Part shown: positions 1-33,826 of the stretch, piece by piece
Layout: each line of letters opens with the position of its first letter
How positions within the stretch are numbered: position 1 is the first letter of the stretch
NCBI GenBank assembly: GCA_963837465.1
Contig: CAWINB010000004.1
Location: forward strand, 74,853-138,852
DNA length: 64,000 nt
From: Candidatus Doudnabacteria bacterium
GTDB lineage: Bacteria; Patescibacteriota; Doudnabacteria; UBA920
Direction of reading: 5' to 3'
Program-made: the position numbers and the translations under genes
Notes under the pieces: model-generated
What the model was told of the DNA's origin: nothing
Database searches by the model: none
Seen by the model: only the letters and a program-made list of their open reading frames with translations

Positions 1-2073
1 GGGCACGCTTTGTTTGTGACCATTGAGGACATCCTGATTAGATATAAAAGGATGCGGGGATACAAGGCCCTTTGGCAGCCGGGAACCGACCACGCCGGCT
101 TTGAAACCCAGGTGGTATTTGAAAAAAAACTGGAAAAAGAAGGCCGGTCGCGCTTTAAAATGCGGCGCGAAGAATTCTACAAAGAAATTTGGGATTTTGT
201 GCAAAGCAACAAGCACATAACGGAAAATGGTTTAAAAAGACTGGGCGCGTCGTGCGACTGGGACAGGAATATTTTTACACTGGATCCGGAAATTGTAAAA
301 ATCGTCTACGCGACATTTAAAAAAATGTACGCTGATGGCCTAGTCTACCGTGGCGACCGCATTGGCAACTGGTGCTTTAAACACCAAACCGCGCTGTCGG
401 ATTTGGAAACCAAATACGAAGAGCGCGTTGAGCCGTTTTATTATTTTAAATACGGCCCGTTCACTATTGGCACCAGCCGTCCGGAAACAAAATTCGGCGA
501 CAAGTACGTGATTATAAATCCAAACGACAAACGCTACCAACAATACAAAAATGGCGACACCTTTGAAGCTGAATGGATTAGCGGCCCCATTAAAGCCACC
601 ATTATAAAAGACGAGGCCGTGGATATGGAATTCGGCAGCGGCGTAATGACTATAACTCCTTGGCATGACCAGGTAGATTTTGACTTGGCGCAAAAGCACA
701 AACTGGACAAAGAGCGGATTATAGACAAGTTTGGAAAATTGCTTCCGGTTGCCGGAGAATTCGCCGGGATGAAAACCGCGATCGCGCGTCCTTTGATTGT
801 GGAAAAATTAAAAAATAAAGGCTTGCTGGAAAAAATTGACGAAAATTACAAGCATAACGTGCAAGTATGCTACAAGTGCGGCACAATAATCGAACCCCAG
901 ATAATTCCACAATGGTTTGTCGCAATGACAAAGACATTACCTGATGAACGCCCTTCCTTGCGTGATATGGCCGTTAATGCCGTCCAGAACAAAGAAGTGG
1001 AGATTGTCACGGAAAAATTTGAAAAAATCTTTACGCACTGGATGGAAAACCTGCGCGACTGGCCCATCTCCAGACAAATCTGGTGGGGAATCCCGATTCC
1101 GGTAAAATACTGTAAAAACAGTTACGAGTTGCGGGTAACTGGTAATGAATGCAAAGAGCCGGTAATTGACATAGAAAATAAAACTGATACCTGCCCCGGT
1201 TGTCGGGGAGCGCTGGTAAATGACCCCGATACCTTTGATACCTGGTTTTCCAGCGGCCAATGGCCATACGCGACTTTAATGGCTAATGATGTTAAACGCG
1301 GAACAAAAGATTTTGAAACTTATTTCCCGACGCAGGTTATGGAAACCGGCTGGGATATTTTATTCTTTTGGGTGGCGCGGATGATGATGCTGTCTTATTA
1401 TAAAACCGGCAAACAGCCGTTTGAAAAAGTTTACTTGCATGGGTTAGTGAGGGCCGGCGACAGGCAAAAAATGAGCAAGAGCAAAGGAAATGTTGTGGGT
1501 ATTTTGGAAGCCACCGATGAATTCGGCGCTGATGCAATTCGCATGGCTGTAATTTTTTCTTCCGCAGCCGGCAATGACATCCCATTGGCAATGGAAAAAA
1601 TTAAAGGAATGAAGCACTTTGCCAATAAGGTCTGGAATATCGCGAGATTTATTTTGAGCAACACTGTCATTGCCAACACTGTCATTGCGAGGAGCGCGGC
1701 CGACGAAGCAATCTTACCACAGGAAAAGATCGCTTCGGACGCACTCGCGATGACAGCCGCGGACAAAAATATTTTAGCTAAATTAGATGCTGTCATAAAA
1801 TCATCTACCGAACATCTCGAAAACTTCCGCCTCCACGAAGCCGCGCAGGAAATTTACCAGTTTATCTGGCATGAATTCGCGGACATTTACATTGAGGCCA
1901 GCAAAAAACAACTGGCCGATGGACAGTTAAAAGAAAGTACTTACAACTTACTAACTTACAACTTACTAACTGTCCTAAAACTTCTCCACCCTTTTATGCC
2001 CTTTGTGACCGAGGAAATTTGGAGCAAACTTAACCAAAAAAGTTTACTGATGGTAACCAAGTGGCCTCTCTAG
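1..2073 (+). CDS. valS: valyl-tRNA synthetase, 5'-partial (continues upstream of the window; track ORF begins at an in-frame TTG at 10)
   Basis: Class I aaRS motifs: 'WQPGTDHAGFETQ' (ValRS-like), 'SRPET', 'KMSKS'. Reading frame is open to the window edge. Confidence 0.8.
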   Translation, partial: GHALFVTIEDILIRYKRMRGYKALWQPGTDHAGFETQVVFEKKLEKEGRSRFKMRREEFYKEIWDFVQSNKHITENGLKRLGASCDWDRNIFTLDPEIVKIVYATFKKMYADGLVYRGDRIGNWCFKHQTALSDLETKYEERVEPFYYFKYGPFTIGTSRPETKFGDKYVIINPNDKRYQQYKNGDTFEAEWISGPIKATIIKDEAVDMEFGSGVMTITPWHDQVDFDLAQKHKLDKERIIDKFGKLLPVAGEFAGMKTAIARPLIVEKLKNKGLLEKIDENYKHNVQVCYKCGTIIEPQIIPQWFVAMTKTLPDERPSLRDMAVNAVQNKEVEIVTEKFEKIFTHWMENLRDWPISRQIWWGIPIPVKYCKNSYELRVTGNECKEPVIDIENKTDTCPGCRGALVNDPDTFDTWFSSGQWPYATLMANDVKRGTKDFETYFPTQVMETGWDILFFWVARMMMLSYYKTGKQPFEKVYLHGLVRAGDRQKMSKSKGNVVGILEATDEFGADAIRMAVIFSSAAGNDIPLAMEKIKGMKHFANKVWNIARFILSNTVIANTVIARSAADEAILPQEKIASDALAMTAADKNILAKLDAVIKSSTEHLENFRLHEAAQEIYQFIWHEFADIYIEASKKQLADGQLKESTYNLLTYNLLTVLKLLHPFMPFVTEEIWSKLNQKSLLMVTKWPL
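1681..1713 (+). repeat. copy (a) of the palindromic element family GTCATTGC-GAGGAGCGCGGCCGACGAA-GCAATC, in frame inside valS (encodes VIARSAADEAI); immediately preceded by a 15-nt tandem duplication (1659-1688)
   Basis: Near-identical to the intergenic copy at 25644-25670; stem arms ATTGC/GCAAT. Confidence 0.7.
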
Positions 2074-2105
2074 CAACTAAAAACTAAAAACTAATTACTA
2101 AGCTT

Positions 2106-2507
2106 ATGTTCAAAGGATTCAGGCAGTTTATTTTGCGGGGTAATGCCATAGATTTGGCCGTGGGTGTGGTTATGGGCGCGGCTTTTGGCAGTGTGGTTAA
2201 TTCTTTGGTTAAAGATTTGCTGACGCCGCTTATTGGCATACCCGGAAGAATATCCAATTTTTCCTCACTGACGCTGACCATAAACCACAGCCAGTTCGCT
2301 TTTGGCGACTTCTTAAATAATCTGATTTCATTTTTGCTTACGGCCATAGCCGTCTACTTTTTCGTGGTCCTGCCAATGAATACCGTGGTCAACAGGATGC
2401 GCGGAGGCGAAGTTTCGAAACCCAACACAAAAATCTGCCCGCAGTGCTGCAGCGAAATTCCCAAATCCGCTACCCGCTGCGCCCACTGCACCCAGCCGGT
2501 GGAATAG
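2106..2507 (+). CDS. mscL: large-conductance mechanosensitive channel MscL with C-terminal zinc-ribbon-like tail
   Basis: N-terminus 'FKGFRQFILRGNAIDLAVGVVMGAAFG' is typical of MscL. C-terminal C-x2-C...C-x2-C (CPQCC...CAHC). Confidence 0.8.
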   Translation: MFKGFRQFILRGNAIDLAVGVVMGAAFGSVVNSLVKDLLTPLIGIPGRISNFSSLTLTINHSQFAFGDFLNNLISFLLTAIAVYFFVVLPMNTVVNRMRGGEVSKPNTKICPQCCSEIPKSATRCAHCTQPVE

Positions 2508-2587
2508 CTACAAAGGGCAACCCTTGCGCGGGCCATCTGTCATTCGTTTTTACATCCGTGTCTTCCGTGTAAAATTGTCCCAAATTC

Positions 2588-3881: not shown

Positions 3882-4244
3882 TTAAATAAGCGGTAATTTC
3901 ATGGTCTCTCTTTTATTATTTTCAATCTTTAATCTCCAAAAATCGTCTTTTAATAAATGCTTCCACCTTGGGTACTGCCAACCGTGCCAAAAATCACTGT
4001 CTAAAAAAACACAAATTCTCTTTTTTCTAAATACTATATCTGGTTTCCCTCTGATTGAAGCGGTATTAATTTCGAATTTATTTTTTGTTCTGATTTTTAA
4101 TTCCGCGATAAAATCTTGTTCAAATTTAGTTTCTCTAGAACGTATTTTGGACATTAAATTTGAACGGCGCTTTTTACTTAGCTTATCAGGCGTTCTGATT
4201 TTTTTAAAATTTCTGCCCGAATAATTTTTATAAACTTTTTTCAT
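3882..4244 (-). CDS. vsr: very short patch repair endonuclease Vsr
   Basis: 'RSRETKFE...GKPDIVF...ICVFLDSDFWHG' matches the Vsr signature (RSRNMSRI...GKPD...CFWHgH). Adjacent to a C5 methyltransferase. Confidence 0.75.
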   Translation of the reverse strand: MKKVYKNYSGRNFKKIRTPDKLSKKRRSNLMSKIRSRETKFEQDFIAELKIRTKNKFEINTASIRGKPDIVFRKKRICVFLDSDFWHGWQYPRWKHLLKDDFWRLKIENNKRETMKLPLI

Positions 4245-5287
4245 TCTAAACCAGATTCAAAAATTTCAGAGGCCTTACAGTTTTCCAAATCAGAATCGGA
4301 ACTTTTATTCAGTAAACTTTTCCAAGCTTCAATCCTGTCATTACCTATATTTTTCAATTTCCAATACTCTAATAATTTGTCTTGGGGTATTAAATCAATC
4401 GTCCTGGTTACTAATTTTGCTTTTTCGAAAAGAAGAGCGAATATCTGAGGAACCATAATTTTTTTACCACTAACTTTTAATCCAACCTGTCCGCCGGCTG
4501 TAAAAAAATCCCTCAAATTATGAGTTATGGCATTATAGTCATTAAGCAAAAAGGCTGCGACTCTTTCAAACTTTGTTTTGTTATTGTTGCCAAAAATCTC
4601 TGGGAAAAAAATCATGGATTTAATAATAAAATCCGACTCCTCTTTTTCGTCAAATTTATTTAAAAACCGTACGATCGGCTGATCGTTTTTTGCCATACCT
4701 GGATCTATCCACCATAATTCTTCTCCCGGCTTTAACAATGACCTATAGTGTTCTTTGAATTTTAAAATTGGCTTTGGGTCTTTTCGCAGTGAGTCATAAT
4801 CTAAGTTTAATTTATTAAAGATAGACTGTCCTAAAGGGAGTTCCATGTCAATTTTGTAACGCGGTGAATGGGTCACGGCAACTTCATAGAGACAATCTTG
4901 ATACGGTCTGTATATAATATTAGGAGAGCCTCCCAGTTTTCCAAAAAACATATATATTCGTTCTGTCTCTTCCACCCGAGTCCCCTCCGCGACGCTGTTG
5001 CCCGTGGAAATCCATTTATCTTCGGCGGTAACTTTAACTTCTATGCCATAATATTGATTGGCTATTATGTCAGGAAAGGTCTGCTTACCTGTTTGTCTTA
5101 TAGTGCCATAAAACTTTGTACCCTTTGACGCCAAACACATCTTCGCGAAAACTATATTTTCAAAAGACACCCCATCCATTTTTATGCTGGGCGTCTTTTT
5201 TATTTCTTCCAAACACAAAATCTTAGTTTTTTCCAACAAGTTCCTGAACTCTTCTTCCGTGATTTTTTGACTCTGAATGTAAACCAT
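4241..5287 (-). CDS. putative type II restriction endonuclease (PD-ExK) of the MTase-REase-Vsr operon
   Basis: Lies between the C5-MTase and vsr; 'FPDIIANQYYGIEVKV' is a D...ExK motif. Its start is overlapped by the last 65 nt of the MTase. Confidence 0.45.
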   Translation of the reverse strand: MVYIQSQKITEEEFRNLLEKTKILCLEEIKKTPSIKMDGVSFENIVFAKMCLASKGTKFYGTIRQTGKQTFPDIIANQYYGIEVKVTAEDKWISTGNSVAEGTRVEETERIYMFFGKLGGSPNIIYRPYQDCLYEVAVTHSPRYKIDMELPLGQSIFNKLNLDYDSLRKDPKPILKFKEHYRSLLKPGEELWWIDPGMAKNDQPIVRFLNKFDEKEESDFIIKSMIFFPEIFGNNNKTKFERVAAFLLNDYNAITHNLRDFFTAGGQVGLKVSGKKIMVPQIFALLFEKAKLVTRTIDLIPQDKLLEYWKLKNIGNDRIEAWKSLLNKSSDSDLENCKASEIFESGLE

Positions 5288-6263
5288 TAAGTTTGGAATT
5301 AAGATTCCTATCTAAAAATTCCTCAATACTTTTCGCTATATGCCAAGCCAAAACCGGAGGCACAGCGTTACCTATTTGTTTATACGCGCTAGATGTTGAA
5401 GGTAAAAATTCAAAATCATCCGGGAAAGATTGAATACGCGCCGCTTCTCGAGCGGAAAGCCTTCTTTTTCCATTCCAATGGTATTCAATATTGCCATGGT
5501 GCTCTGTTCTCATTGTTGGACCAGGTTTATTAGCGGAAACCAAGTTATTACCCTGACCTTTATTCTTTTTAGCTTTGGACCAATAATGATTTAGTAAAGC
5601 TCCTTCCTCTTTTTTCTCCAAATCCCCAATCGCTTCTTTTAAAGTAACCCAGTTATTTTTATTCAATAAAGGTTTTGGGTGATCAAAAGGAGGTAGCGCG
5701 TCTTTACGAGTTCCTACTATAATAACCCTTTCTCTCTTTTGAGGAACTCCATAATCGGCTGCTAGTAAAAGCTTATAACGGACATGGTAACCCAAAACTT
5801 CAAAATCTTTTACTATAGTTTCTATAGCGTTATCCATTGTTAGCAAACCTTTAACATTTTCAGCTATAAAAACTAGTGGAGTTGTTCTCTTTACTACTTC
5901 TACCATGCTGCGATACAAAACCCCTCTTTTACCTTCAAAGCCCATTCTTTTACCAGCGTGGCTAAAATCTTGACAAGGAAAACCTCCAAGCACAACATCA
6001 ACATGCTGAGGCAGCGATCTATCAAAAATAGTTCCGGAATGCTTGTTGGCTAAAATTTCGGTGATATTGCCGCAAATAATTTCGTGCTTAAAATATTTTC
6101 TAAAACTTTCACAAGCTGATTCGTCTATATCATTAGCCCATTTTACCTCAAAATTTCTTTTGGAGTACTTTTTACCTAAAAACGTAAAACCCCCAGTGAA
6201 GCCTAAATCTAATCCTCCACAACCTGTAAAGAGCGAAGCTATAGAATATTTTTGTTTTTGCAT
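5223..6263 (-). CDS. dcm: DNA cytosine-5 methyltransferase
   Basis: Motif I 'FTGCGGLDLGF', motif IV 'GFPCQDFSHAGKR', motif VI 'ENV'. Confidence 0.85.
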   Translation of the reverse strand: MQKQKYSIASLFTGCGGLDLGFTGGFTFLGKKYSKRNFEVKWANDIDESACESFRKYFKHEIICGNITEILANKHSGTIFDRSLPQHVDVVLGGFPCQDFSHAGKRMGFEGKRGVLYRSMVEVVKRTTPLVFIAENVKGLLTMDNAIETIVKDFEVLGYHVRYKLLLAADYGVPQKRERVIIVGTRKDALPPFDHPKPLLNKNNWVTLKEAIGDLEKKEEGALLNHYWSKAKKNKGQGNNLVSANKPGPTMRTEHHGNIEYHWNGKRRLSAREAARIQSFPDDFEFLPSTSSAYKQIGNAVPPVLAWHIAKSIEEFLDRNLNSKLNGLHSESKNHGRRVQELVGKN

Positions 6264-10371: not shown

Positions 10372-10397
10372 GTCATCCTGAATTTATTTCAGGATCC
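10372..10397. repeat. short variant (f) of the palindromic element: GTCATCCTGA-atttattt-CAGGATCC, just upstream of the rpoC start
   Basis: Shares the GTCATCCTGA arm with the copies at 26003, 26050 and 32915. Confidence 0.5.
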
Positions 10398-10408
10398 ATT
10401 ATTTATAT

Positions 10409-10513
10409 AATTTCAAATTACAAATATCAAATTTCAAATGAATGGCAAGTGTCAAAGTTTAAAATTGAAACATTAGGATTTTATTTGAAATTTGTAATTG
10501 GAAATTTGAAATT
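10409..10513. repeat. imperfect ~30-bp inverted repeat built from AATTTCAAAT/TTACAAAT units (arms 10409-10439 and 10483-10513) in the rpoC 5' region
   Basis: The reverse complement of the right arm matches the left arm in blocks; followed by a (CT)5 run. Confidence 0.5.
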
Positions 10514-15206: not shown

Positions 15207-15430
15207 TACAAACACATAGAGAATTTTATATATGGATTTGAGTATTTTTTATGTATAAATCATTCACGTATCTACAAAAGTAGAAATTTTATATATGGAT
15301 TTGAGTTTTAGATTCTTATAATATTATAACATATCTACAAAAGTAGAAATTTTATATATGGATTTGAGAGTTCCTGTACGGAAAGGACTGGAATATCTAC
15401 AAAAGTAGAAATTTTATATATGGATTTGAG
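15207..15430 (-). CRISPR. CRISPR array, leader-distal segment: degenerate terminal repeat (15207-15242) plus three intact 36-nt repeats (15270-15305, 15333-15368, 15395-15430); spacers of 27, 27 and 26 nt
   Basis: Repeat on the transcribed (minus) strand is CTCAAATCCATATATAAAATTTCTACTTTTGTAGAT, the canonical Cas12a crRNA repeat 3' hairpin. Confidence 0.9.
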
Positions 15431-16825: not shown

Positions 16826-17049
16826 ATCTACAAAAGTAGAAATTTTATATATGGATTTGAGTTTTATGGAACGGCGTACAAGCACAGATCTACAAAAGTA
16901 GAAATTTTATATATGGATTTGAGGGGGAATAACCAAGTCGCCGCATTCCATCTACAAAAGTAGAAATTTTATATATGGATTTGAGTATATTCTTTGTGGA
17001 AGATGTGGGCTACATCTACAAAAGTAGAAATTTTATATATGGATTTGAG
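16826..17049 (-). CRISPR. CRISPR array, leader-proximal segment: four intact 36-nt repeats (16826-16861, 16888-16923, 16950-16985, 17014-17049); spacers of 25 (IS-adjacent), 26, 26 and 28 nt
   Basis: Repeats identical to those of the distal segment. Leader 17050-17211 lies between the array and cas2. Confidence 0.9.
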
Positions 17050-17063
17050 TCCGAATTGTTTTA

Positions 17064-17121
17064 GTTTAAGCCAAAAAGAATGCAAATAACAAATAAATTG
17101 TTACGACTTTTTGGCTTAAAC
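17064..17121. repeat. perfect 15-bp inverted repeat in the CRISPR leader (GTTTAAGCCAAAAAG ... CTTTTTGGCTTAAAC, 28-nt spacer)
   Basis: Exact reverse-complement arms at 17064-17078 and 17107-17121. Confidence 0.6.
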
Positions 17122-17211
17122 ATAAGTGGCCAAAAAATAAAGACCAAGGTTTTCAAATCTATATTTAAACTTATACCTTTAGGTATTTTGTTTAATTTTT
17201 AAGGTACATTT

Positions 17212-17493
17212 TTATTTAAAGACTAACACATCTTTCTCTTCGTTAGCCGAATAGCCATAACGAATGACTTTTTTTTGACAGACCAGACAAACTGGAAAAA
17301 TAACAATACTATCGCTATTGGTAAACTGCTTTTTATATACCAATTCTATCTCTTTTAAAATGTTTGTCAATACGCGCGGGCTGTTCTTTATTTCAAAAAC
17401 CGAATACTGAATTCTGCGGCCAAATTTCTTTAAAAATTTGCTGAATTTTGTCCTGGTTTTGTCGTCGGCAAAATCGTAAGAAACTAAAATCAT
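17212..17493 (-). CDS. cas2: CRISPR-associated endoribonuclease Cas2
   Basis: 93 aa starting 'MILVSYDFADDKTRTKFSKFLKKFGRRIQYSVFE'; sits between cas1 and the array. Confidence 0.85.
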   Translation of the reverse strand: MILVSYDFADDKTRTKFSKFLKKFGRRIQYSVFEIKNSPRVLTNILKEIELVYKKQFTNSDSIVIFPVCLVCQKKVIRYGYSANEEKDVLVFK

Positions 17494-17494
17494 A

Positions 17495-18457
17495 TTATTG
17501 AACCTCTTTGTTTAAAATATTAAAGTCAGGAAACTCGCCGCCGCTATGCATAAGAGACCTGTAAAATTTTTGGGTGAATAAATATAAAGCCTCTTTATTG
17601 TCCATAATTGCTTCCATAAAAATTTTGCCGTACTTTTGGCTTTTTTGATAATCTAAAACATATCTTCTGCCTACAACAGAAAAATCTTTACTATCTATTT
17701 GCTTGAGGTTGTAGGATTTTATAAGTTGTTTTTCTATAATACAGCGAAATGGCTCAATGATATCGCAGGTTAGTGATTTCCGCTGGAAAAATAATTTATG
17801 ATAGACCCCTTTGTAGGTATCAAAGCCAAACAGCAATAAAAGCGAATCAATAAAGTTAAATAAAAAAGTATAGCCCATATCCAATAAAAAATTAGGGATA
17901 TCGGGTTTTACCCGCGGCATACGTCTAAGCCAGCCAATTTTCCCAAAATATTCTCCAAAAAATACTCGGCTAAAATTTCCTTCCAGTCCCAATAACTCTT
18001 CAGGATTTCTGGCATTAACGACCTGCGCTAAAAATTCTGCAATCCCAGCTTCAACGTTCAAATCCCTATCTAATAACCTAAACTGGTTTTCCATTTTATT
18101 TGCTACCAATTTTTTTGCCATCCTAAACTCTTTTTCCTCGGGCATAGTGTATTGCATTGACCTAAGCATATAATTTCCCTCTGCCCGCGCGTTAAGGGCG
18201 CCGTATAACCCAAAATTATTACCCAAAAAAAATAAGGAAACCGCCCGCTTGCGGCACTCTTTTACTAAACCAGAGGTAAAAGAAAAGTCCCCGATTACGA
18301 ATATAGCCAAAATGCGGTGGCACGAAGCCTGGTTTATAATTTTTCCCTCTTTTTCAAAAACCACGTTTTCATTTTTAAAGAACAACCGGTTTTTAGCTCC
18401 GTGTTCGGTCTGGACAAATAAAATCTGCTTGGCTTTTAAATCCGGCAAAGTTAGCAT
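17495..18457 (-). CDS. cas1: CRISPR-associated integrase Cas1
   Basis: 320 aa of typical Cas1 length and conservation, adjacent to cas2 and cas4. Confidence 0.85.
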   Translation of the reverse strand: MLTLPDLKAKQILFVQTEHGAKNRLFFKNENVVFEKEGKIINQASCHRILAIFVIGDFSFTSGLVKECRKRAVSLFFLGNNFGLYGALNARAEGNYMLRSMQYTMPEEKEFRMAKKLVANKMENQFRLLDRDLNVEAGIAEFLAQVVNARNPEELLGLEGNFSRVFFGEYFGKIGWLRRMPRVKPDIPNFLLDMGYTFLFNFIDSLLLLFGFDTYKGVYHKLFFQRKSLTCDIIEPFRCIIEKQLIKSYNLKQIDSKDFSVVGRRYVLDYQKSQKYGKIFMEAIMDNKEALYLFTQKFYRSLMHSGGEFPDFNILNKEVQ

Positions 18458-18460
18458 AAG

Positions 18461-19003
18461 TTAGTTCCAAGCTAATGGGCTGTAAATATTATTTTGACAA
18501 TGGGCGCATGAATGTTCGGTAATATCCTTGGGGCTGAAACTTCTCATTTTTTGCAACGTTTGTTCAAATTCTAAAATTTCCTCCGCGCTTGGCAAGCCAA
18601 CTTCATAACGTTTGTTATCGGAAAGGCTGTGTAAAAACATTTTTTCTACTTTATACCCCATTTCTTCCATACAAAACATTTCCGCGTAAAGCTGGTATTT
18701 GTAACCCAAATAAATGTTTTTAATTTTATTTTTGCGCTCTATTAAAGTTTTTCCGGTTTGGTCATATATATCGATCTTGCCAATCAAACCATACCTCTCG
18801 CAATATACATCTATCCCCTGAACAAATCGCTTAGCGCTGGAATAAGTCCCATCTTCTATATTTTCATGCACCAACTTCCCCGCCACCTGCGCAGTTTCGT
18901 GATATCCCCGCTGGTCAAAATTCTCATATATTGTATGCAGATATAAAGACAAAGGACAGTAAAGAAAGTCATTTATTTTGGAAATTTGTATGTAATTTTC
19001 CAT
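18461..19003 (-). CDS. cas4: CRISPR-associated Cas4 (RecB-like nuclease with Fe-S cysteines)
   Basis: 180 aa with an N-terminal 'YCP' and C-terminal 'CAHCQ' cysteines. Order is cas12a-cas4-cas1-cas2. Confidence 0.75.
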   Translation of the reverse strand: MENYIQISKINDFLYCPLSLYLHTIYENFDQRGYHETAQVAGKLVHENIEDGTYSSAKRFVQGIDVYCERYGLIGKIDIYDQTGKTLIERKNKIKNIYLGYKYQLYAEMFCMEEMGYKVEKMFLHSLSDNKRYEVGLPSAEEILEFEQTLQKMRSFSPKDITEHSCAHCQNNIYSPLAWN

Positions 19004-19010
19004 TTATTTT

Positions 19011-22000
19011 TTATTTCTGAACAAAGGAATCCCATTCTGATAAACTAACAAATAAGTCTTTATAAACCAATTTATCTGCGCCGCCTTTGGCCTTCGCGGC
19101 ATCTCTAATTTTATTAATCATATATAAACCTTTTCGAGCTATATTATAAGCTCCATTTGCGTCTCCGTTTATTATTGTTGCCAGACTAAGATTAGCATCT
19201 TTAGGATTACGGCTATCAAAACTGCAAACAGGGCATTGTATAAAATCATCATCCTTTTCAGAACTATTACGAATAGATAGCAATAGGCCAAAATAAAATA
19301 AAAAGTTTTTATAAAATTGCGCCGTCAAATTAGCATTAATTATCGCGTCTGTTATATCCCCTTTTCCACGCCAGTCAATCTTGGATTCGTCAAATAATTC
19401 AATAAACCTTTCTGTAATTTGATAGCTATTAGTAATATAACGCTTTTCTCCATTTTCAATTCTAGGGCTAGTCTTATAGCGAATAACGTCTGAATATAAA
19501 GTCCATTCGTTTTTCCCTGATGGTTTTTCATTACTGAAGTCAGCAATCTTATAAGTAAAAGCGAGCCTATTATTTTTTACCTCGTACTGGATCCGTAAAT
19601 TTTGGATTAACTCTTTTGATTTTTCAACATTTTCGAAAACAGTCTTTAGCCGCGCATCTTTACGGAAACCACAGTTTGGGCAGGTGGTAGAAGTATAAGC
19701 TGGGGCCGTATAGAATATCACACCCGTTTGTCCGGAAAGATTCTGAACACTTTGTATTGGAGAAGTTAGCTGAAAAGCTTTTAAAGGATGACCGAATTCA
19801 CCCTCTTGAGCGTGTTTAAGTACCAAAAAATTCAACTTTTTTACCAATGCCAATTCTAACTTTTGATAAACCTGTTTTTCTATTTTTGTTCTCCCGCGTT
19901 TAAACTTACTATTCAAATCCTCAAATATCACAATAGCATTATACTTTATAACTAAATCGCATAACTTTTTAACGGCGTGGGAAGCATAACCTTCTTTGAG
20001 TTCTTTGATATTTGCTATGGCCTGCCAGTCTAACCGAGCTTGTTTCCGTTGTTTTTCTCTTTCGTCTAATTTTTGGTGATAAGAAATACCATTAACTACA
20101 TTTAGACTCTGATGCTCATTTTCAATAATATTACCCTCGCCATCCAATATACAATAATAACCCAAGTGTTTTTCACCTCGGTCTATACCAATAATATTAA
20201 TCTTATTTTGTACCAACTCCTTATTAACTGCTATGTTAAAATTTTTAGGTGTAATAGCGCCACTATTTGCGTTTAATGATATGGGTAGATGAAGTAATAT
20301 TTTATCTTCCGTGTATCTTTTGTTCCCTATAACATCAATTTTAGTTTTCCTTTCTTTATCAACAACAGACTTAAGTGATTTTGGCCGGAAAAAAACTTCA
20401 GCTCCACCACTTAATTTAAAGACCAAATCGTTCAAATTTTGTTTATCAAATAAAAGTTTGAAGTATGTGGTATGCAGGTTTTCCTTACCGGATGATTTTT
20501 TAGCAAAATCCTTTGAATAAATCTCAAACAAATATAAATGTTTATCTGCCGTTTCTTTAGTTTTTTTATTTGTTCTAATATATACCCCCTGCTCTACATA
20601 AACTTGACTAACCTGTTCAAAATCAAGTTCGTAAGTATTAACCAATTCCAAATCAGCCAGTAAGTCCTTGGTGGCGACATATGTTTTACTAACAAGACTT
20701 TGCAACTCTGGGAACTTTGATATTTTAGTCAGCAGAATTTTGTTAATCCTTTCCAACAATTTTTTCTCAGACATAAGCTTCTTGTCGTCTTTGAAAGTTG
20801 AGCCAAACATGCCTTTATAACTACTTCCAAAAAGACTTGTGGTTTTGAGCTGCTTGTAGACCATTTTTTCATATCGTGCTCCTTTTTCAAATGCAGTAAA
20901 AGCTTCTGGATACTTCTGCCTTTCAAATAATCCTGGGTCATCAGAAATTCCCAGAAAGAACTTTTTATGCTTTTTGAAAATAAAACCACAAAATTGAGCC
21001 GCGCCGGCATCATTTTCAGACCAGCCATCTAATAAATTCCCTTTATCAAAATTCAACTTAACCTTTCTGGTCAAAAATATTTTTTTTGTCAAAAAATTAC
21101 GTAAAGCATCATAATATTTAAAGGCTGCCCAATTATGGTATATATCATTAAATGAATTATAAAAATTGCTTTCAATTTTTATATCTGCAATTTTCTTCTT
21201 CCCTTTTTCTAAAGCTAAATATTTTACCATACGGTATAAGCTTAAAACCGCTTCGGCATAATGCTTTACAATTTCCAAAGACTGTGGGGTTTTATTCCAC
21301 TTTTGTTTCAATAATAACCCAAGCTCTTTATTTGCTTCTTGATAAATCTTTAATAGTTGATAAAATTCACTGAGCCAAATGTTGTAAAAATTATGCAAAT
21401 GACTTTGCGTGGAATCGATTGTCTTAGTTTTAATATATTCTTCCTTAAAAAGATCTTCGTTTTTTATATAGCGTAATGTTTCCAGTGCATTGCTAATTTC
21501 CATAAAACTAACAAAATCCGGTAAATTATCTTTTATATCTTTTTTCTTTTTTTCTTCATTAACAATATTTATAACGGCTTGTTTAAAAATTTCACCATTT
21601 TTAAACCATTTATAGCTTATTGTATTAAAAGCTTGTCCGTTTACATAAATTCCCGATAAATCAAAAGGGGCTTTATCTATGAGCAACGATTTAAATAATT
21701 TTTCAATTTCTGGGATAACTTCATTATTTTCTCTTTCAAATTCGTTTAGTGTGTCTAATAAATTATCATCGTCTTCAATAATTAATCTACCAACTTCTTG
21801 GGCAGATTTCTCGCTTAGAATCTGCTTATACAAAGCCTGAAATAATGGCAATTTTTCTTCTTTGTGTTTCTGCCTATATTCATTAATTTTTTGATTCAAG
21901 CCCTTAGCTCCAACGCCGCCAGCTTCCTTATCTGCGCCAATTATTTTATTATAGACATCAATACCAGATTGCAAAAAACAGTTATTATAATAATCCAAAT

Positions 22001-22718
22001 TAAATATTTTTAAATCCTCCTCGCTAAATGCCAGATCGCCTTGTAGCTGACCTTTATAATATTTATCAAACAGCTCCTTATTTTTGGAAAAAATGGTTAA
22101 GTTTTCATCTATAATACGATTAGCAATTGCCGTATCTTCAGCGCCATCGCTATACAAATTTTCTCTGCTTTGACGAAAATTTCCCAAAGAAGTTGCAAAT
22201 TTTTTAAAAGAATCGATCAAAGCTACCGCTTCTTTATTTTTAATCTCTTGAGACTTTAAGATATCCAAAATTTCCTTTTTGAACAGAAATTTAAAGTCCG
22301 TCGAATTTTCAGCAAATTTTACACCATCGGCCGTATATTTTTCTCTCCACTTATCACCAGCGATTTTAAAATATTCAACAACCTCTCTACGTAGATTCTC
22401 TTTTTCTTTACTAAACGGATTCACTTTACCTTTTAACCCAGTTAAATTGCTACTAGTAAACAGCTCATAAAATTCCTTAAAATCCATTTCAGGGGCCATC
22501 AAGGCATCTATTACAAAACGACGATGTACTTCGTCCAAATATGGTTTTATTTTTTTATAATTTTCCGCTACTAATTTATCTTTTTCAATTATCCGGTTTT
22601 CCACCAACATTTTTAAAGTGTTTCCAACCGGCTTCAACTCAAACCTTAAAGTCTTGGAAAGGGCGTATTTTCCAGTAAATTGTTCAAAAATAGACTTTTC
22701 CTTAATTGTGTTTGGCAT
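19011..22718 (-). CDS. cas12a: Cas12a (Cpf1) type V-A effector nuclease
   Basis: 1235 aa with N-terminal 'YALSKTLRFELKPVGNTL'. RuvC-I 'IGIDRGEKHLGYYCIL', RuvC-II '...VIFEDLNSKFKRGR', RuvC-III 'DANGAYNIARKGL'. Adjacent cas4-cas1-cas2 and a Cas12a-type repeat. Confidence 0.9.
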   Translation of the reverse strand: MPNTIKEKSIFEQFTGKYALSKTLRFELKPVGNTLKMLVENRIIEKDKLVAENYKKIKPYLDEVHRRFVIDALMAPEMDFKEFYELFTSSNLTGLKGKVNPFSKEKENLRREVVEYFKIAGDKWREKYTADGVKFAENSTDFKFLFKKEILDILKSQEIKNKEAVALIDSFKKFATSLGNFRQSRENLYSDGAEDTAIANRIIDENLTIFSKNKELFDKYYKGQLQGDLAFSEEDLKIFNLDYYNNCFLQSGIDVYNKIIGADKEAGGVGAKGLNQKINEYRQKHKEEKLPLFQALYKQILSEKSAQEVGRLIIEDDDNLLDTLNEFERENNEVIPEIEKLFKSLLIDKAPFDLSGIYVNGQAFNTISYKWFKNGEIFKQAVINIVNEEKKKKDIKDNLPDFVSFMEISNALETLRYIKNEDLFKEEYIKTKTIDSTQSHLHNFYNIWLSEFYQLLKIYQEANKELGLLLKQKWNKTPQSLEIVKHYAEAVLSLYRMVKYLALEKGKKKIADIKIESNFYNSFNDIYHNWAAFKYYDALRNFLTKKIFLTRKVKLNFDKGNLLDGWSENDAGAAQFCGFIFKKHKKFFLGISDDPGLFERQKYPEAFTAFEKGARYEKMVYKQLKTTSLFGSSYKGMFGSTFKDDKKLMSEKKLLERINKILLTKISKFPELQSLVSKTYVATKDLLADLELVNTYELDFEQVSQVYVEQGVYIRTNKKTKETADKHLYLFEIYSKDFAKKSSGKENLHTTYFKLLFDKQNLNDLVFKLSGGAEVFFRPKSLKSVVDKERKTKIDVIGNKRYTEDKILLHLPISLNANSGAITPKNFNIAVNKELVQNKINIIGIDRGEKHLGYYCILDGEGNIIENEHQSLNVVNGISYHQKLDEREKQRKQARLDWQAIANIKELKEGYASHAVKKLCDLVIKYNAIVIFEDLNSKFKRGRTKIEKQVYQKLELALVKKLNFLVLKHAQEGEFGHPLKAFQLTSPIQSVQNLSGQTGVIFYTAPAYTSTTCPNCGFRKDARLKTVFENVEKSKELIQNLRIQYEVKNNRLAFTYKIADFSNEKPSGKNEWTLYSDVIRYKTSPRIENGEKRYITNSYQITERFIELFDESKIDWRGKGDITDAIINANLTAQFYKNFLFYFGLLLSIRNSSEKDDDFIQCPVCSFDSRNPKDANLSLATIINGDANGAYNIARKGLYMINKIRDAAKAKGGADKLVYKDLFVSLSEWDSFVQK

Positions 22719-22850: not shown

Positions 22851-22875
22851 GGCTCCCGAAAGGGAGCCGTTTTTT
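22851..22875 (+). terminator. plus-strand intrinsic terminator GGCTCCC-gaaa-GGGAGCC + T6, abutting the mazF-like stop
   Basis: Perfect 7-bp stem with a GNRA-like loop and T-run. Not terminator-like on the minus strand. Confidence 0.55.
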
Positions 22876-23269
22876 ATAGACCTAATAAACCTCCAAGCTT
22901 TTGTTTTATGGCTTGAAGCTGAGCTGGGGATATTTTTCTAACAAGTCTTCTAAACCTTTTTACGCTTACCAGCCGGAGCTGGGACAGGATGACGCTATAC
23001 AGATTTCCCTGATATTCAAGACCGTGATAATAAATACCGATTTTTTCTTTGCTTGTCATTGGCAAGACCCATGCCAACTTTGCGTTAAATTTCCTTACTA
23101 CTAAAACAGGCCTTTCATATAAATCGTTCTTTCCGTCCTGTTCATCACCCAAGTTAACTCCAATACTACACCACCAAATTTCTCTTTCATGAAAGGGTAG
23201 AGTGTCCGGAGCGATTATCTCTAAATTTTTCTTTTCTTTGTTCCAGCCGTCAAAATTTTTTTGATACAT
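22874..23269 (-). CDS. MazF/PemK-family endoribonuclease toxin-like protein (solitary)
   Basis: 'REIWWCSIGVNLGDEQDGKNDLYERPVLVV...VLPMTSK...SVILSQLRLVSVKRF' aligns with the MazF/EndoA core (GDV...GSEQ.G.RP.LV...P.TS...S.VLLDQIRTIDK.RL). No adjacent antitoxin ORF. Confidence 0.65.
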   Translation of the reverse strand: MYQKNFDGWNKEKKNLEIIAPDTLPFHEREIWWCSIGVNLGDEQDGKNDLYERPVLVVRKFNAKLAWVLPMTSKEKIGIYYHGLEYQGNLYSVILSQLRLVSVKRFRRLVRKISPAQLQAIKQKLGGLLGL

Positions 23270-25570: not shown

Positions 25571-25605
25571 AAACACCAAAGCAAAAGACTTTGGTGTTTT
25601 TATTA
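25571..25605 (+). terminator. intrinsic terminator AAACACCAAAG-caaaagac-TTTGGTGTTT + T-run
   Basis: Perfect 10-bp stem directly after the permease stop. Confidence 0.7.
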
Positions 25606-25643
25606 TTGCGCTTTTTTTGCAATACCCCACGACTCCGCTGCGT

Positions 25644-25670
25644 TGTCATTGCGAGCGCGGCCGAAGCAAT
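25644..25670. repeat. palindromic element copy (b): GTCATTGC-GAGCGCGGCCGAA-GCAATC, ending 3 nt from the tsaB-like stop
   Basis: Same arms as the in-frame copy inside valS. Confidence 0.7.
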
Positions 25671-25673
25671 CTG

Positions 25674-25991
25674 TTAACATATATACTCGCGGTCAAACTT
25701 ATCTTTAGCCACAGCTTTTACCGGCACGTTCCAGGCAAAGCCCAAAGCCAGGGCGTGGGCAACGCCCATGCGCACGCCGGTGTAGGAACCAGGGCCTTTG
25801 TTTACGATAATCTTTCTAATTTTAGATTTAGGATTTGAGATTTTAGATTTCCGTAAAAATTCACCAAGCTTTGCCAAAACCTGATGGGACTTATGGGGGT
25901 CGATTTTGTAAAATTTTTTTACGGTTTCTTTACCGTCAAAAACCCCAAAAGTGACTTTATTAAAATCTGTTCCGTCTATGTATAGTATCAT
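25674..25991 (-). CDS. TsaB/YeaZ-like (N-terminal Kae1/TsaD-fold) protein, short (105 aa)
   Basis: 'GPGSYTGVRMGVAHALALGFAWNVP' matches the TsaB core. It lacks the usual C-terminal half. Confidence 0.5.
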   Translation of the reverse strand: MILYIDGTDFNKVTFGVFDGKETVKKFYKIDPHKSHQVLAKLGEFLRKSKISNPKSKIRKIIVNKGPGSYTGVRMGVAHALALGFAWNVPVKAVAKDKFDREYIC

Positions 25992-26002
25992 GCCGGTCTG
26001 GC

Positions 26003-26090
26003 GTCATCCTGAGGGAGCGCATCCGACCGAAGGATCTTACAAATTTAAGGGATCCTTCGTCCCTCGGATGCACTCGGGACTCAGGATGAC
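26003..26090. repeat. two inverted copies (c, d) of the element GTCATCCTGAG(G)GAGCGCATCCGAC(C)GAAGGATC, 13 nt apart, forming an ~88-nt palindrome; the TGA in copy d is the Mur-ligase stop codon
   Basis: 26003-26036 is the forward copy and 26050-26090 the reverse-complement copy. Stop codon tca/tga lies at 26081-26083. Confidence 0.7.
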
Positions 26091-27406
26091 GCCGATGTTA
26101 GCTTATTTAATTCTTCCCGCGCCACATCGCGATCATCCCACTCAATCCGTTTATTGCCGGGCAAGACCAAAAACTGCTCACTGCCTTTGCCGGTAATTAG
26201 CACAATGTCGTTTGCCTGGGCAATTTTTAAGGCGTGGGCGATGGCGGCGCGCCGGTCTAAAATTATTTCGTACGGCGGTTTCCTTAATTTAAAGCTGTTA
26301 ATTCCCTGCTCTATATTTGCCGCGATTTCCGCCGGGTCTGAGCCGTAGACGTCGTCGTTGGTCACAATAATATAGTCGGCAAACTGGGCCGCGGTTTTGC
26401 CGAAAATGAATCTTTTGGAACCATCGCGATGGCCGCCCGTGCAGCCGAAGACGTGGATCAATCGGTTGTGGGGAAACAGGCTGGCCGCCTCAAGCGAGCT
26501 TTTAATGGATATCGGTTCGCAGCCGTAATCCACAATTACGCCGAAACCCAGATTATTTTTCACCATTTCCATGCGGCCGGGAGCGCCACGGAAGCTTTTC
26601 AGCAGTTCCGCGGACTTGGCCAAATCCACTCCCAGCATAACCGCGCACGAGGCGGCCAAGCCGGCGTTTTTAGCGTTAAATTCAGCCAGTAAATCAACCA
26701 CAAAAGGCACGCCATCAATGGTAAATTCCGCCGGCGGCGCCATCCTGACCAACCCGGCGTTAAAAACTTTGTCCGCGTCCCGCGCCACGACATTGCCAAA
26801 GCTGACGCCGAATTTTTTATCGGCGGGAAAGCTTAAAAAATAACCGGACATCGCGTCATCCAGATTCACGCCGATTATTTTTCTCGGGAAAAAACTTTTT
26901 TTCCGGGCTTTTCCCAAAGCCCCGAACAATTTCCCTTTGGCCGCCTGGTAGTTGCCAAAACTGCCGTGGGAATCCAGGTGCGCGCGTGAAAGGTTCGTAA
27001 ACAAAGCTATGTCAAAATTAATCCCCAAATGGCGGTTTTGTTCCAGTCCTTCGGAAGTACATTCAATAACCGCGGCTTGGCATTTATTTTTTGCCATAGT
27101 ACGCAATTGCCGCTGCAGCAAAATTTCATTGGGCATGGACAAGCCGTGCTTGTTGATGTTTATGTTCTGCCCATCAAAAAATTCCACCGTTGTAATATAA
27201 CCCGTCCGCGTTCCCGCTCCGTTTAAAATATGCGCCAGCATAGCCGCCGTGGTTGACTTACCCACAGTACCGGTTATGCCAATGACAATCATTTTTCCGC
27301 TCGGGCGCCCATAATAAAAACCCGCGGCTCGGGCTGTTAAACCGTGGTAATAGGGGCGAATAAATTTTAACAAAGGCCGCGGCAACAGGCTTTTGAAGGA
27401 ATCCAT
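26081..27406 (-). CDS. Mur ligase family protein (MurE-like UDP-N-acetylmuramoyl-tripeptide synthetase)
   Basis: 'IGITGTVGKSTTAAML' P-loop typical of Mur ligases; central and C-terminal Mur ligase domains present. Confidence 0.65.
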   Translation of the reverse strand: MDSFKSLLPRPLLKFIRPYYHGLTARAAGFYYGRPSGKMIVIGITGTVGKSTTAAMLAHILNGAGTRTGYITTVEFFDGQNININKHGLSMPNEILLQRQLRTMAKNKCQAAVIECTSEGLEQNRHLGINFDIALFTNLSRAHLDSHGSFGNYQAAKGKLFGALGKARKKSFFPRKIIGVNLDDAMSGYFLSFPADKKFGVSFGNVVARDADKVFNAGLVRMAPPAEFTIDGVPFVVDLLAEFNAKNAGLAASCAVMLGVDLAKSAELLKSFRGAPGRMEMVKNNLGFGVIVDYGCEPISIKSSLEAASLFPHNRLIHVFGCTGGHRDGSKRFIFGKTAAQFADYIIVTNDDVYGSDPAEIAANIEQGINSFKLRKPPYEIILDRRAAIAHALKIAQANDIVLITGKGSEQFLVLPGNKRIEWDDRDVAREELNKLTSASS

Positions 27407-29644: not shown

Positions 29645-29650
29645 GAGCAC

Positions 29651-30369: not shown

Positions 30370-30758
30370 TATAACCTGGGTTAAGGATCGCGGCTGCGCA
30401 AGCAGGTTGTCCGTCTTTTGCAAGACTAATGAATTAACAAACTTTCGAGATGTTAATCCCGCGATCCAAGCCTAATGTTTTCGGGAGCCGACCCTGGGGG
30501 TTGGATGCTCATTATCCAGCCGTTTTCCGCGCAGACGGAACCTGCAAGGATATGGGTAGTCGGCTTCCGTCCAGTACCAAGCCATAGTAATTAAAGAGGA
30601 ATTGGGCATGCGACCTGATTTGCCGCAGGTTGTAAAATCCGTTTGCCCGGATTTTGAGCCCAGGATTAGTTTTAATTCCTGACAGGCGCGCCGCCAGAAC
30701 GCCATAAGTCAGAACCCGGGCTCGAGTAGTTCCTTCTCCTCCTGCCCGGCTTTTTTTT
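30370..30758 (+). ncRNA. candidate ~390-nt structured ncRNA (class unresolved; 3' region AGUCAGAACCCGGGCU resembles the RNase P RNA P4 3' strand ACAGAACCCGGCUUA)
   Basis: TTGACA-17-TAGATT promoter-like sequence (30334-30362) and intrinsic terminator CCCGGGC...GCCCGGC + T8 (30715-30758). Local pairing GGATCGCGG (30385-30393) with CCGCGATCC (30459-30467). No convincing ORF in 600 nt. uvrB has its own downstream -10 (TATATT about 30789). Confidence 0.35.
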
Positions 30759-30805
30759 GTTCGCCGATGCTGGTATGCTAATAATTGGTATATTGATATT
30801 AAGCT

Positions 30806-32902: not shown

Positions 32903-32947
32903 TATCTTTTTGCTGTCATCCTGAGGAGCGCATCCGACGAAGGATCC
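32888..32947. repeat. perfect 13-bp hairpin ACAGCAAAAAGAT-aat-ATCTTTTTGCTGT overlapping the uvrB stop, immediately followed by palindromic element copy (e) GTCATCCTGAGGAGCGCATCCGACGAAGGATCC (32915-32947)
   Basis: Exact reverse-complement arms; element identical in arms to 26003-26036. Confidence 0.7.
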
Positions 32948-32965
32948 CTTACTTAAAAACCGGCA

Positions 32966-33826
32966 TTACGCCTGTTTTTTTATAACCTTCTCATAAGGCT
33001 CGGCCGATTCCCAAGCGAACTCAAACAAAATCTTAATAGCGTGGCTTATTTCTTTGCTTGTAATGCTTACCGCGAATATAGTTGGCCGAAAAGAAAAAAA
33101 TACTACAGTGTCGCCAAAAATGGCGTTGTCCGTTAAAAAGTTTTTTTCATTCGGCAAAAACCGCGCCTGGTAATTTTTGTCTTTGGTTGCAATTTTTGCG
33201 TATTCCAAGTTCTCTTTAGAGTATCCCATAACATCGCGCACGGTTAAATTTATTTCCTGGGCTCTTTTCAAAAATTGCACCAGGGTTTCCGGGTCCACTT
33301 TTAAAGCATCCGCGGGAGTGCCAAAAAACCAGACCTCGTTAGCGGAATAAATTTTTTGATAAATTTGTTTTACACCCTCTTTGCCCTCAAATAATTGGAC
33401 ATTGGGTTTTTCCTTTTTGGCGTTAAATAAGGCCAATAAATTTGGCATTGTGCTTTTAAGCAATTCTTCTTTTTTGCGCAAATCGTAAATCAGCTTTTCC
33501 GGCGACTCGGCCGTGTACAAAGCTTTTTTGGCGCGCGGAATAATGCTGACAATCCCCTTTTGCTGGAGCTCATCCAAAATTAAATAGGTAGTCGGGCGTT
33601 TAAGCCCCGCTTTTGCGGCAATTAACTGCACACTCGCCGTCCCCAATTCCAAAAGGGCCAAATAAACTCCGGCCTGTTTTTGGTTTAATCCTGTTTGATT
33701 TAAAACATCGGAAATCTCCATATATTTTACTCGGCAGCATTCCTTAAGTTTGTAATCAAGGGTTCCTTCGGCTGCACTCAGGACGACAGCTATGTTAAGT
33801 ATAAATGATGTTTGTCGTTTTGTCAA
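32966..33826 (-). CDS. TrmB-family HTH transcriptional regulator, paralogue 1 (track start is TTG; likely true start is the ATG 'MEISDVLNQ' at about 33721)
   Basis: 'LNQKQAGVYLALLELGTASVQLIAAKAGLKRPTTYLILDELQQKGIVS' is a TrmB-type wHTH. Paralogue at 40907-41677. Confidence 0.7.
   Translation of the reverse strand: MTKRQTSFILNIAVVLSAAEGTLDYKLKECCRVKYMEISDVLNQTGLNQKQAGVYLALLELGTASVQLIAAKAGLKRPTTYLILDELQQKGIVSIIPRAKKALYTAESPEKLIYDLRKKEELLKSTMPNLLALFNAKKEKPNVQLFEGKEGVKQIYQKIYSANEVWFFGTPADALKVDPETLVQFLKRAQEINLTVRDVMGYSKENLEYAKIATKDKNYQARFLPNEKNFLTDNAIFGDTVVFFSFRPTIFAVSITSKEISHAIKILFEFAWESAEPYEKVIKKQA
33761..33787. repeat. divergent copy (h) of the palindromic element (reverse orientation: GTCGTCCTGAGTGCAGCCGAAGGAACC) in the TrmB-1 upstream region
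   Basis: GTCNTCCTGAG...CGAAGGANCC skeleton conserved. Confidence 0.45.

Follow-up and report, generated by a model that had tools for sequence, protein, structure and literature searches.

Two published systems come closest to a family of short palindromes that occurs in a 64-kb stretch of the genome of a Candidatus Doudnabacteria bacterium, a member of the candidate phyla radiation (CPR); the 64,000 nucleotides analyzed (contig CAWINB010000004.1) are called the window throughout. The first is the CGTC-tagged superfamily of repetitive extragenic palindromes (REPs), with families CGTC-1 to CGTC-4, described by Di Nocera et al. 2013 (BMC Genomics 14:522, PMC3733652). Its members carry a CGTC tag (often TGTC or CCTC), an 8-9-bp stem with A-T and T-A at positions 1-2, a 4-5-nt loop, and a short 3' tail with the consensus CCA. 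Inverted dimers can fold as one long hairpin, and in-frame intragenic copies encode 20-30 residues. The superfamily takes in dRS3 of Neisseria and RPE-4 and RPE-6 of Rickettsia conorii. No flanking REP-associated tyrosine transposase (RAYT) is reported for these repeats, which in the authors' words 'apparently lack a dedicated transposase', and CPR bacteria are not among the five phyla that the paper lists.

The second system was described by Chenal et al. 2025 (Nat Commun 16:2388, PMC11893778). SsnA is a 94-amino acid GIY-YIG protein of the cd10448 group, and ssn genes in many phyla are flanked by NTS/SRM hairpins (CGTCATTCCCGCGMAVGCGGGAATCYRG), an arrangement (NTS-ssnA-NTS) that the authors liken to an insertion sequence. 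SsnA binds the hairpin only as single-stranded DNA (ssDNA), with the cut falling a few nucleotides upstream of the tag. Cutting depends critically on the three bases (GTC) in front of the palindrome, and binding on the 3' C; the enzyme is inactive on double-stranded DNA (dsDNA), RNA and the reverse strand, and does not bind the RNA form. In N. meningitidis, SsnA restricts transformation by NTS-bearing DNA. NTS are rarely intragenic (2%), and 19% of SRM-rich genomes have no Ssn homologue. CPR bacteria go unmentioned in the main text of the paper.

Here we describe eight elements in the window that belong to this known family of CGTC-tagged REPs, that is, NTS/SRM hairpins, with a variant form of the hairpin and from a host group new to the family. 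Their reading as a whole as sites for an Ssn nuclease is, in our judgment, likely to be correct. An annotation made earlier from the letters of the window (the first-pass annotation) had taken them for a mobile element of the REP kind with a RAYT as its possible partner, which was right in kind and wrong in the partner enzyme.

Eight tagged palindromes in the window

Seven positions (copies A and C-H) had been annotated previously, and inspection of the sequence shows that all of them carry the element as described. An eighth, copy B, was absent from that list and was found by pattern search 14 nt past A. Copies A (1681-1713, plus strand; tGTC-ATTGC-GA-G-GA-GCGCGGCC-GA-C-GAA-GCAAT-C) and B (1728-1754, minus strand; GTCATCGCGAGTGCGTCCGAAGCGATC, or tGTC-ATCGC-GA-GTGCGTCC-GAA-GCGAT-C) are the left and right halves of a convergent doublet inside valS. 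Both are in frame, A encoding VIARSAADEAI and B, read on the opposite strand, KIASDALAMT. Copy C (10372-10397, plus; tGTC-ATCCTGAA-TTTAT-TTCAGGAT-CCA) lies in the rpoB-rpoC spacer, and copy D (25645-25671, plus; tGTC-ATTGC-GA-GCGCGGCC-GAA-GCAAT-C) between convergent ABC-2 permease and tsaB-like genes. Copies E (26003-26036, plus; cGTC-ATCCT-GA-GG-GA-GCGCATCC-GA-CC-GA-AGGAT-C), just 5' of the tsaB-like start, and F (26050-26090, minus; cGTC-ATCCT-GA-GTCCC-GA-GTGCATCC-GA-GGGAC-GA-AGGAT-C), on the murE side of the murE-tsaB spacer, form a second convergent doublet. Copy G (32915-32947, plus; tGTC-ATCCT-GA-G-GA-GCGCATCC-GA-C-GA-AGGAT-CCC) is found between convergent uvrB and TrmB-family regulator genes, and the degenerate copy H (33761-33787, minus; tGTC-GTCCT-GA-GTGCAGCC-GA-AGGAA-CCC) lies 5' of the TrmB-family gene. 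The doublet spacers measure 14 nt (A/B) and 13 nt (E/F); the remaining copies are singletons.

The elements share one order of parts: a (C/T)GTC tag, a 5-bp arm starting with AT, GA, an optional inner stem, a G+C-rich core of 8 nt (G-YGCRKC-C), GA or GAA, the complementary arm, C, and a short tail (TTA or CCC). Where an inner stem is present it has 1, 2 or 5 complementary bp and is followed by a second GA. The tag is CGTC in E and F and TGTC in A, B, C, D, G and H. In every one of the eight copies the stem is preceded by GTC and followed by C; perfect outer stem, tag and 3' C are intact together in seven, which also open AT...AT. Copy H has a GTCGT head, GT...AA at the stem opening, and one broken arm pair (the outer pair is lost). 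Directly after the stem stands CCA in C, CCC in F, G and H, and a single C in A, B, D and E. The arms of B (ATCGC/GCGAT) are a third arm type in the window, and copy C stands apart from the others with its continuous 8-bp stem, 5-nt loop and CCA tail.

The copies exceed chance by pattern counts. In this window of 43% G+C, GTCATYSYGA has 8 matches against 0.47 expected, one of them (920-929) a chance match, and a stricter family pattern has 6 matches against 0.00 expected (100 shuffles). These data support a single palindromic repeat family with complementary but differing arms, dispersed and mostly at gene ends, and the earlier observation is confirmed.

With DNA nearest-neighbor parameters, the A+B doublet folds at -22.9 kcal/mol (z -5.1) and the E+F doublet at -30.3 kcal/mol (z -7.2); copy C reaches z -3.2 against shuffles. 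Doublets would thus make very stable long hairpins, and five of the eight copies lie just past a gene 3' end or within an operon spacer, as might be expected if the elements acted in RNA, terminating transcription or stabilizing mRNA at transcript ends under selection on RNA structure. Such a role has been proposed for REPs in general (PMC3733652), but we consider it improbable here. None of the copies is followed by a U-run, and D already has a canonical terminator in front of it (25571-25600). Copies are found in either orientation with respect to transcription, and also within a coding region, and single copies other than C are no more stable than shuffles (z -0.5 to +1.0). No Rfam family matches the elements, either in a gathering scan of the window or in an E-value scan of 25600-26120; the matches were plant and animal miRNA noise and a genuine LOOT RNA elsewhere. 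Finally, the conserved unpaired tag and 3' C are features of ssDNA recognition by a protein, and SsnA leaves the RNA form unbound (PMC11893778).

Comparison with described hairpin families

The window copies resemble CGTC REPs in their CGTC or TGTC tag, AT stem start, short tail, inverted dimers, in-frame intragenic units and absence of a RAYT, and copy C alone fits the 8-bp stem, 5-nt loop and CCA tail of that superfamily. The other seven copies depart from it, with a 5-bp outer stem, GA/AG mismatches, an inner stem of 0-5 bp and an 8-nt G+C-rich core. Further differences are the tails, which are C or CCC followed by TTA instead of CCA, and the CPR host, which falls outside the five phyla of the 2013 report (PMC3733652).

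With NTS/SRM hairpins, the window copies share an HGTC tag directly 5' of an AT-starting palindrome, a C directly 3' of it, dispersal, and distribution over many phyla; in addition, the window hairpin type brackets genes for GIY-YIG proteins of ~95 amino acids in other genomes, '>' upstream and '<' downstream. In most window copies, nevertheless, GA/AG mismatches, an inner stem that varies and longer loops take the place of the continuous 8-bp stem of NTS/SRM, and the window places an in-frame doublet in an essential gene, whereas only 2% of NTS are intragenic (PMC11893778). A further likeness is to the Rickettsia palindromic elements (RPE-1 and relatives), palindromes tolerated in frame that add extra peptides to surface loops of essential proteins. 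Unlike RPE-1, which is longer than RPE-4 and RPE-6 (PMC3733652), the window elements measure 26-41 nt and are of the CGTC class.

Distribution and subfamilies

The family pattern, run against 185,579 species genomes, matched at least 120 stretches. The matches listed span Acidobacteriota, Alphaproteobacteria (including Rickettsiales), Chloroflexota, Bacteroidota, Planctomycetota, Bacillota, Omnitrophota, Gemmatimonadota, Saccharibacteria, Chisholmbacteria and another Doudnabacteria genome; 64 of 134 have perfect 5-nt complementary arms. Two main types are seen among them, GTCATTGCGAG…GCGCAGCC…CGAAGCAATCC and GTCATCCTGAG…GCGCAGCC…CGAAGGATC, both with complementary inner stems of variable length. 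In the other Doudnabacteria species (L107), a copy of the E type is identical to that of the window at 33 of 34 positions and lies at a non-orthologous locus.

The differing yet complementary arms of the window copies had been taken as covariation that argues for selection on a hairpin. The complementarity is real; however, the same arm types (ATTGC/GCAAT and ATCCT/AGGAT) span phyla, so the differences within the window mostly reflect old subfamilies and are not by themselves compensation in place.

Regular arrays of family members in the same orientation were also seen, with periods of 87 nt and 155 nt, as opposed to singletons or inverted doublets. They occur in a metagenome-assembled genome (MAG) of Terracidiphilus (L019, 5-320 and 5694-5858) and in a Planctomycetota MAG (L026, 819-1151).

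Bracketing of GIY-YIG genes in other genomes

To find recurrent neighbors of the elements, we clustered the open reading frames (ORFs) around the listed pattern matches (120 stretches). Among these matches, the sole recurrent neighbor directly adjoining elements was a protein of 95-99 amino acids. At five loci (L006, L032, L044, L065 and L085) it is a single-domain GIY-YIG protein (Pfam PF01541 in 5/5), and its gene is bracketed by hairpins of the same type, '>' upstream and '<' downstream, belonging to the ATTGC...GCGCAGCC... and ATCCT... types. Hairpins near-identical to copy C flank a GIY-YIG gene in L164. A profile search for Ssn homologues gave thousands of matches, none tied to the 868-kb source contig.

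The reverse test started from 80 metagenome loci picked solely by homology to the hairpin-adjacent GIY-YIG proteins, a sample of one Ssn subfamily, and scored as a hairpin any GTC[AG]T head whose 5-bp arm was perfectly paired and that lay no more than 400 nt from the gene. A hairpin was present at 70 of the 80 loci (upstream at 63, downstream at 61, on both sides at 54). The hairpins totaled 332, compared with 42 in shuffles, and clustered in the 200 nt next to the gene. Median distances are 42 nt from the nearest '>' upstream to the domain start and 11 nt from the stop codon to the nearest '<' downstream; at the 42 loci that have both, the arm type matches in 32. Thus, the unit defined by orientation and bracketing is hairpin(>)-GIY-YIG-hairpin(<). 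The hairpin type of the window brackets GIY-YIG genes in other genomes, a link that is an independent re-derivation of the published result and not a discovery.

These data bear directly on the model of the first-pass annotation, in which the elements would be REP/REPIN repeats mobilized by a RAYT, or MITEs (miniature transposable elements with inverted repeats) that stem from a classical insertion sequence. The short palindromes, each bearing an unpaired tag, REPIN-like inverted doublets and the placement of most copies at gene ends agree with it, and the REP/REPIN-RAYT system is indeed similar: a tagged hairpin is recognized on ssDNA, the unit is probably an inverted doublet, and repeats bracket a single small nuclease gene. 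Its tag, however, is GTAG, not (C/T)GTC, and its enzyme has the HUH/Y1 fold (IS200/IS605-like), whereas the gene bracketed by the present hairpins at 70 of 80 loci encodes a GIY-YIG nuclease. The window ORFs include no Y1_Tnp or other transposase, and a RAYT flanked by CGTC repeats was not encountered by Di Nocera et al. (PMC3733652). Moreover, REPIN-RAYT systems are described as mostly vertically inherited, unlike the window family with its near-identical hairpins across phyla, and comparison of filled with empty sites, whose flanks have diverged, gave no recognizable target-site duplication. A RAYT or MITE origin therefore appears very improbable. What stands of the earlier proposal is the REP-like kind of the element and its tolerance in coding sequence, with which differences in presence and absence among relatives agree; the RAYT suggested as partner does not fit, the genes bracketed in other genomes being those of GIY-YIG proteins. 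The ORF between G and H was considered as a RAYT candidate and rejected, being a TrmB-family helix-turn-helix regulator gene.

Turnover at the murE-tsaB locus

The order of genes around copies E and F (ruvA, femAB, an ORF, murE, tsaB, ABC transporter genes) is conserved; therefore, murE-tsaB sites can be compared directly between relatives. The site is empty in L204 (GCA_031291995.1), where 14 nt separate the murE TGA from the tsaB ATG. In L203 the same doublet is present, with ATTCT/AGAAT arms in its second copy, the orthologue of E, in place of ATCCT/AGGAT in the window; this is one genuine two-sided compensatory change at an orthologous copy. L202 has an intact first copy and a degenerate second one. 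The copy D site is empty in L202 and L204 and holds a different hairpin in L203. Relatives thus differ in presence, absence and turnover at orthologous sites. Such a pattern is what a REP-like element with present or past mobility should show, and mobility of the window elements may be inferred from it.

In L202, the tsaB-like gene (4336-4791) is called as 151 amino acids and starts right after the murE stop. Its N terminus would be encoded by the hairpin doublet, and the call is probably a miscalled start codon caused by the element.

Copy F also supplies the stop codon of the Mur ligase gene, as had been proposed: the TGA within GTCATCCTGA ends the ORF at 26081-27406, and the head of the copy reads Ser-Ser-stop (TCA TCC TGA). 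The further suggestion that the insertion replaced the native C terminus is overstated. The element gives only the last two codons and the stop, and the tail is about 5 residues longer than in the shortest orthologues. Moreover, orthologues share the tail motif, with at least five (58-69% identity) ending …KL(T/S)(S/P).AS(S/P) or reading through it.

A convergent doublet in valyl-tRNA synthetase

Copies A and B are translated in frame as part of valyl-tRNA synthetase (ValRS), giving ...NTVIANTVIARSAADEAILPQEKIASDALAMT... (also shown as …SNTVIANTVIARSAADEAILPQEKIASDALAMT…); the in-frame copy noted earlier (VIARSAADEAI) is thus joined by a second. An alignment of 120 ValRS orthologues shows that the stretch flanked by …ARF(I/V)LS and …ADK.IL has a hypervariable length. 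Peptides like those of the element are missing from the closest orthologues (79-73% identity), while seven others combine a head signature (VIA or VIP) with a tail signature (…AMT, …DDK or …NDS). The median loop in these seven is 34 residues, compared with 22 in the others.

We compared the valS DNA of five element-bearing genes, those of the window, L001, L205, L206 and L207. All five have a convergent doublet with identical boundaries, …(T/A)CT|GTCAT … ATGAC|A…, and the subtype of the doublet varies. It is ATTGC + ATCGC in the window and L001, ATTCC + ATCCT in L205, an NTS-like hairpin GTCATTCCCGCGAAAGCGGGAATCCAG with ATCCTCGGG in L206, and ATTCCGGA with ATCCTGAA in L207, the latter near-identical to window copy C. 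Between L001 and the window, arms and spacer are common; the inner stem of A is CCCC/GGGG in one and G/C in the other, still complementary. No hairpin is present at the ValRS site of the closest relative found, GCA_031291995.1 (L208); the relatives with doublets are more distant. Because subtypes differ at a fixed doublet position across orthologues, it is the nucleotide palindrome that is conserved and the peptide that is not, the opposite of a peptide shared without the palindrome, which would have spoken against an inserted element. The ValRS doublet is a case of in-frame tolerance in a hypervariable loop. Neither PMC11893778 nor PMC3733652 mentions, in its available text, a fixed-position ValRS doublet with subtype turnover.

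Copy A is preceded by the 15-nt tandem duplication noted earlier, which is real (1660-1674 and 1675-1689, 14 of 15 nt identical). Its first unit (1660-1674, plus strand; AACACTGTCATTGCC, translated NTVIA) is a half-site made up of 6 nt of flank and the head and 5' arm of A. A comparable head duplication occurs in the same ValRS loop of L206. At other loci, head duplications lie 5' of 29 of 524 hairpins against 19 in an imperfect downstream control, an excess that is weak.

A second 15-nt duplication in valS, at 1939-1968, is a perfect DNA tandem (ACTTACAACTTACTA x2) encoding TYNLLTYNLL. Its connection with the element, which the earlier description had implied, does not hold up: orthologues are equally long here, so the repeat adds no length relative to them, and five share TYNLLTYNLL. 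In L001, a GIY-YIG gene adjoining valS was considered as an Ssn and rejected; it is of the YhbQ/UPF0213 type and has no flanking hairpins.

Evidence for and against Ssn sites in the window

Several observations weigh against reading the window elements as Ssn sites. Domain scans of the ORFs detected no GIY-YIG or Ssn gene within the 64-kb window, a difference from NTS/SRM loci. Among the matches listed, none of the five loci with a GIY-YIG gene comes from Patescibacteria. The GIY-YIG proteins themselves match no NCBIfam model and only distant UPF0213 relatives in PDB. Single copies other than C fold unremarkably, as described above, and all eight copies are confined to the first 34 kb of the window. 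The filled murE-tsaB sites (window, L203 and L202) and the empty one (L204) reveal no target-site duplication or other transposition footprint, their flanks being strongly diverged. Finally, the published SRM string HGTCWYN(0-2)YYVSBRHN(0-5)WNVSBRGN(0-2)RNCYNB matches 0 of the 8 window copies.

The last point is tempered by the behavior of the string elsewhere. It does match the NTS positive controls, but it picks up 9 of the 332 hairpins that accompany Ssn-like genes, and at 5 of 80 loci it has a match no more than 400 nt from the gene, compared with 70 of 80 for the tag-plus-arm rule. Since most hairpins beside Ssn-like genes are missed too, the string is a narrow operational filter and no family boundary. 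Given the assignment to the SRM, the failure of the string on all eight copies therefore marks these as a variant hairpin form.

The same observations may be read in another way, namely that the elements are orphan or relic SRMs, members of the same family in a genome that lost, or never had, a matching Ssn. They would then be neutral leftovers or arrivals by recombination, slowly decaying and persisting where they are harmless, at gene ends and in the flexible ValRS loop. The lack of an ssn gene in the window agrees with this, as do the degenerate copy H, the degenerate second copy in L202, the 19% of SRM-rich genomes without an Ssn homologue (PMC11893778), and the low number of copies, just eight over 64 kb with the last 30 kb free of them. 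Decay sits less well with the perfect outer stem, tag and 3' C kept in seven of eight copies, or with the 33/34-identical copy at a non-orthologous locus in another Doudnabacteria species. Moreover, the lineage-specific subtypes at one ValRS site imply continuing replacement over simple decay. We consider the orphan account possible but doubtful, and favor sites that an Ssn recognizes or has recognized. A cognate Ssn would in that case be encoded in this genome, now or formerly, and would presumably recognize the variant hairpins of the window.

A likely mechanism

If the window elements are Ssn sites, their behavior can be sketched from published work on the Neisseria SsnA and three homologues (PMC11893778). 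Replication, repair or DNA uptake would expose the strand bearing the motif in single-stranded form. A single-domain GIY-YIG nuclease of ~95 amino acids (Ssn) would then bind the hairpin together with its 3' C, cut a few nucleotides 5' of the tag, and spare dsDNA, RNA and the opposite strand. The putative Ssn, or host recombination acting on its nicks, may spread or homogenize the copies. The autonomous form, the complete unit, is hairpin(>)-ssn-hairpin(<), and the window doublets A/B and E/F have the same geometry minus the gene.

A bolder and rather unlikely extension is that hairpin(>)-ssn-hairpin(<) units and gene-less '> <' doublets together form a GIY-YIG-driven, ssDNA-based system, mobile or self-homogenizing, that is active in CPR. 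The ValRS doublet, fixed in position, would be repeatedly overwritten by the subtype that matches the Ssn of each lineage. Consistent with such overwriting, the ValRS boundaries (CT|GTCAT...ATGAC|A) are identical in five lineages whose subtypes differ, except that the window and L001 share arm types. Likewise, the flank-plus-head duplications, seen in valS of the window and of L206 and upstream of ~5% of hairpins elsewhere, could have been left behind when DNA that was cut a few nucleotides upstream of the tag underwent repair. If this extension is true, the CGTC REPs would gain their missing 'transposase' and dispersed repeats a mechanism for concerted evolution.

Independently of this extension, what seemed a new repeat family is placed in the framework of CGTC REPs, SRM and Ssn, which is thereby extended to a candidate-phyla (Doudnabacteria) genome. 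Because the published motif catches 5 of 80 loci against 70 of 80 by the tag-plus-arm rule, SRM censuses, and counts of Ssn specificities useful as ssDNA tools, are probably large underestimates. Recognition of the element also accounts for odd peptides (VIARS..., ...LAMT, VIPSEAEG..., ...AQDDK) and shifted stops in predicted CPR proteins. The fixed-position, subtype-switching doublets in ValRS and at murE-tsaB offer a tractable case for the co-evolution of repeats and nucleases. The recurrent head duplications may record a step of cleavage and repair.

Other features of the window

A second kind of short repeat, A+T-rich, is found at 10400-10440 and 25805-25850 (…atttcaaattacaaatatcaaatttcaaat… and …tttagatttaggatttgagattttagattt…). 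Relatives of it are apparently translated, as …LELGIRN or …LEIGKN at the C termini of several Mur ligase orthologues and as …ISNFQ… in ValRS loops of relatives, which suggests another family tolerated in coding ends of CPR genes.

The second half of the window seems rich in defense and mobile genes, yet holds zero hairpin copies. Regions of restriction-modification type lie at 3882-6263 (with Vsr at 3882-4244), 42872-44824 and 50996-53389, and domain matches among the window ORFs include a C-5 cytosine methylase, an Eco57I/MmeI-type methylase, N6_Mtase and a type II/IV secretion ATPase. A PemK/MazF toxin is encoded at 22874-23269 and a Bro-N protein at 60436-60828.

A type V-A CRISPR-Cas locus occupies 16826-22718 on the minus strand. 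It comprises a Cas12a-like ORF of 1235 amino acids (19011-22718, minus; Pfam RuvC_1 and REC1), an ORF of 180 amino acids (18461-19003, minus), cas1 (17495-18457, minus), cas2 (17212-17493, minus) and a four-repeat CRISPR array (16826-17056) whose repeat includes ATCTACAAAAGTAGAAAT, which is the Cas12a crRNA handle in reverse complement. An apparent orphan CRISPR repeat lies near 15262-15300 (region 15259-15301). The window also contains a full-length LOOT RNA (Rfam RF03000; 53499-53623, minus strand), which scores 65.6 bits against a gathering score of 46.4 and is flanked by a restriction-modification-like gene (51533-53389) and an RVT_3/RNase H-like ORF (53674-54201).

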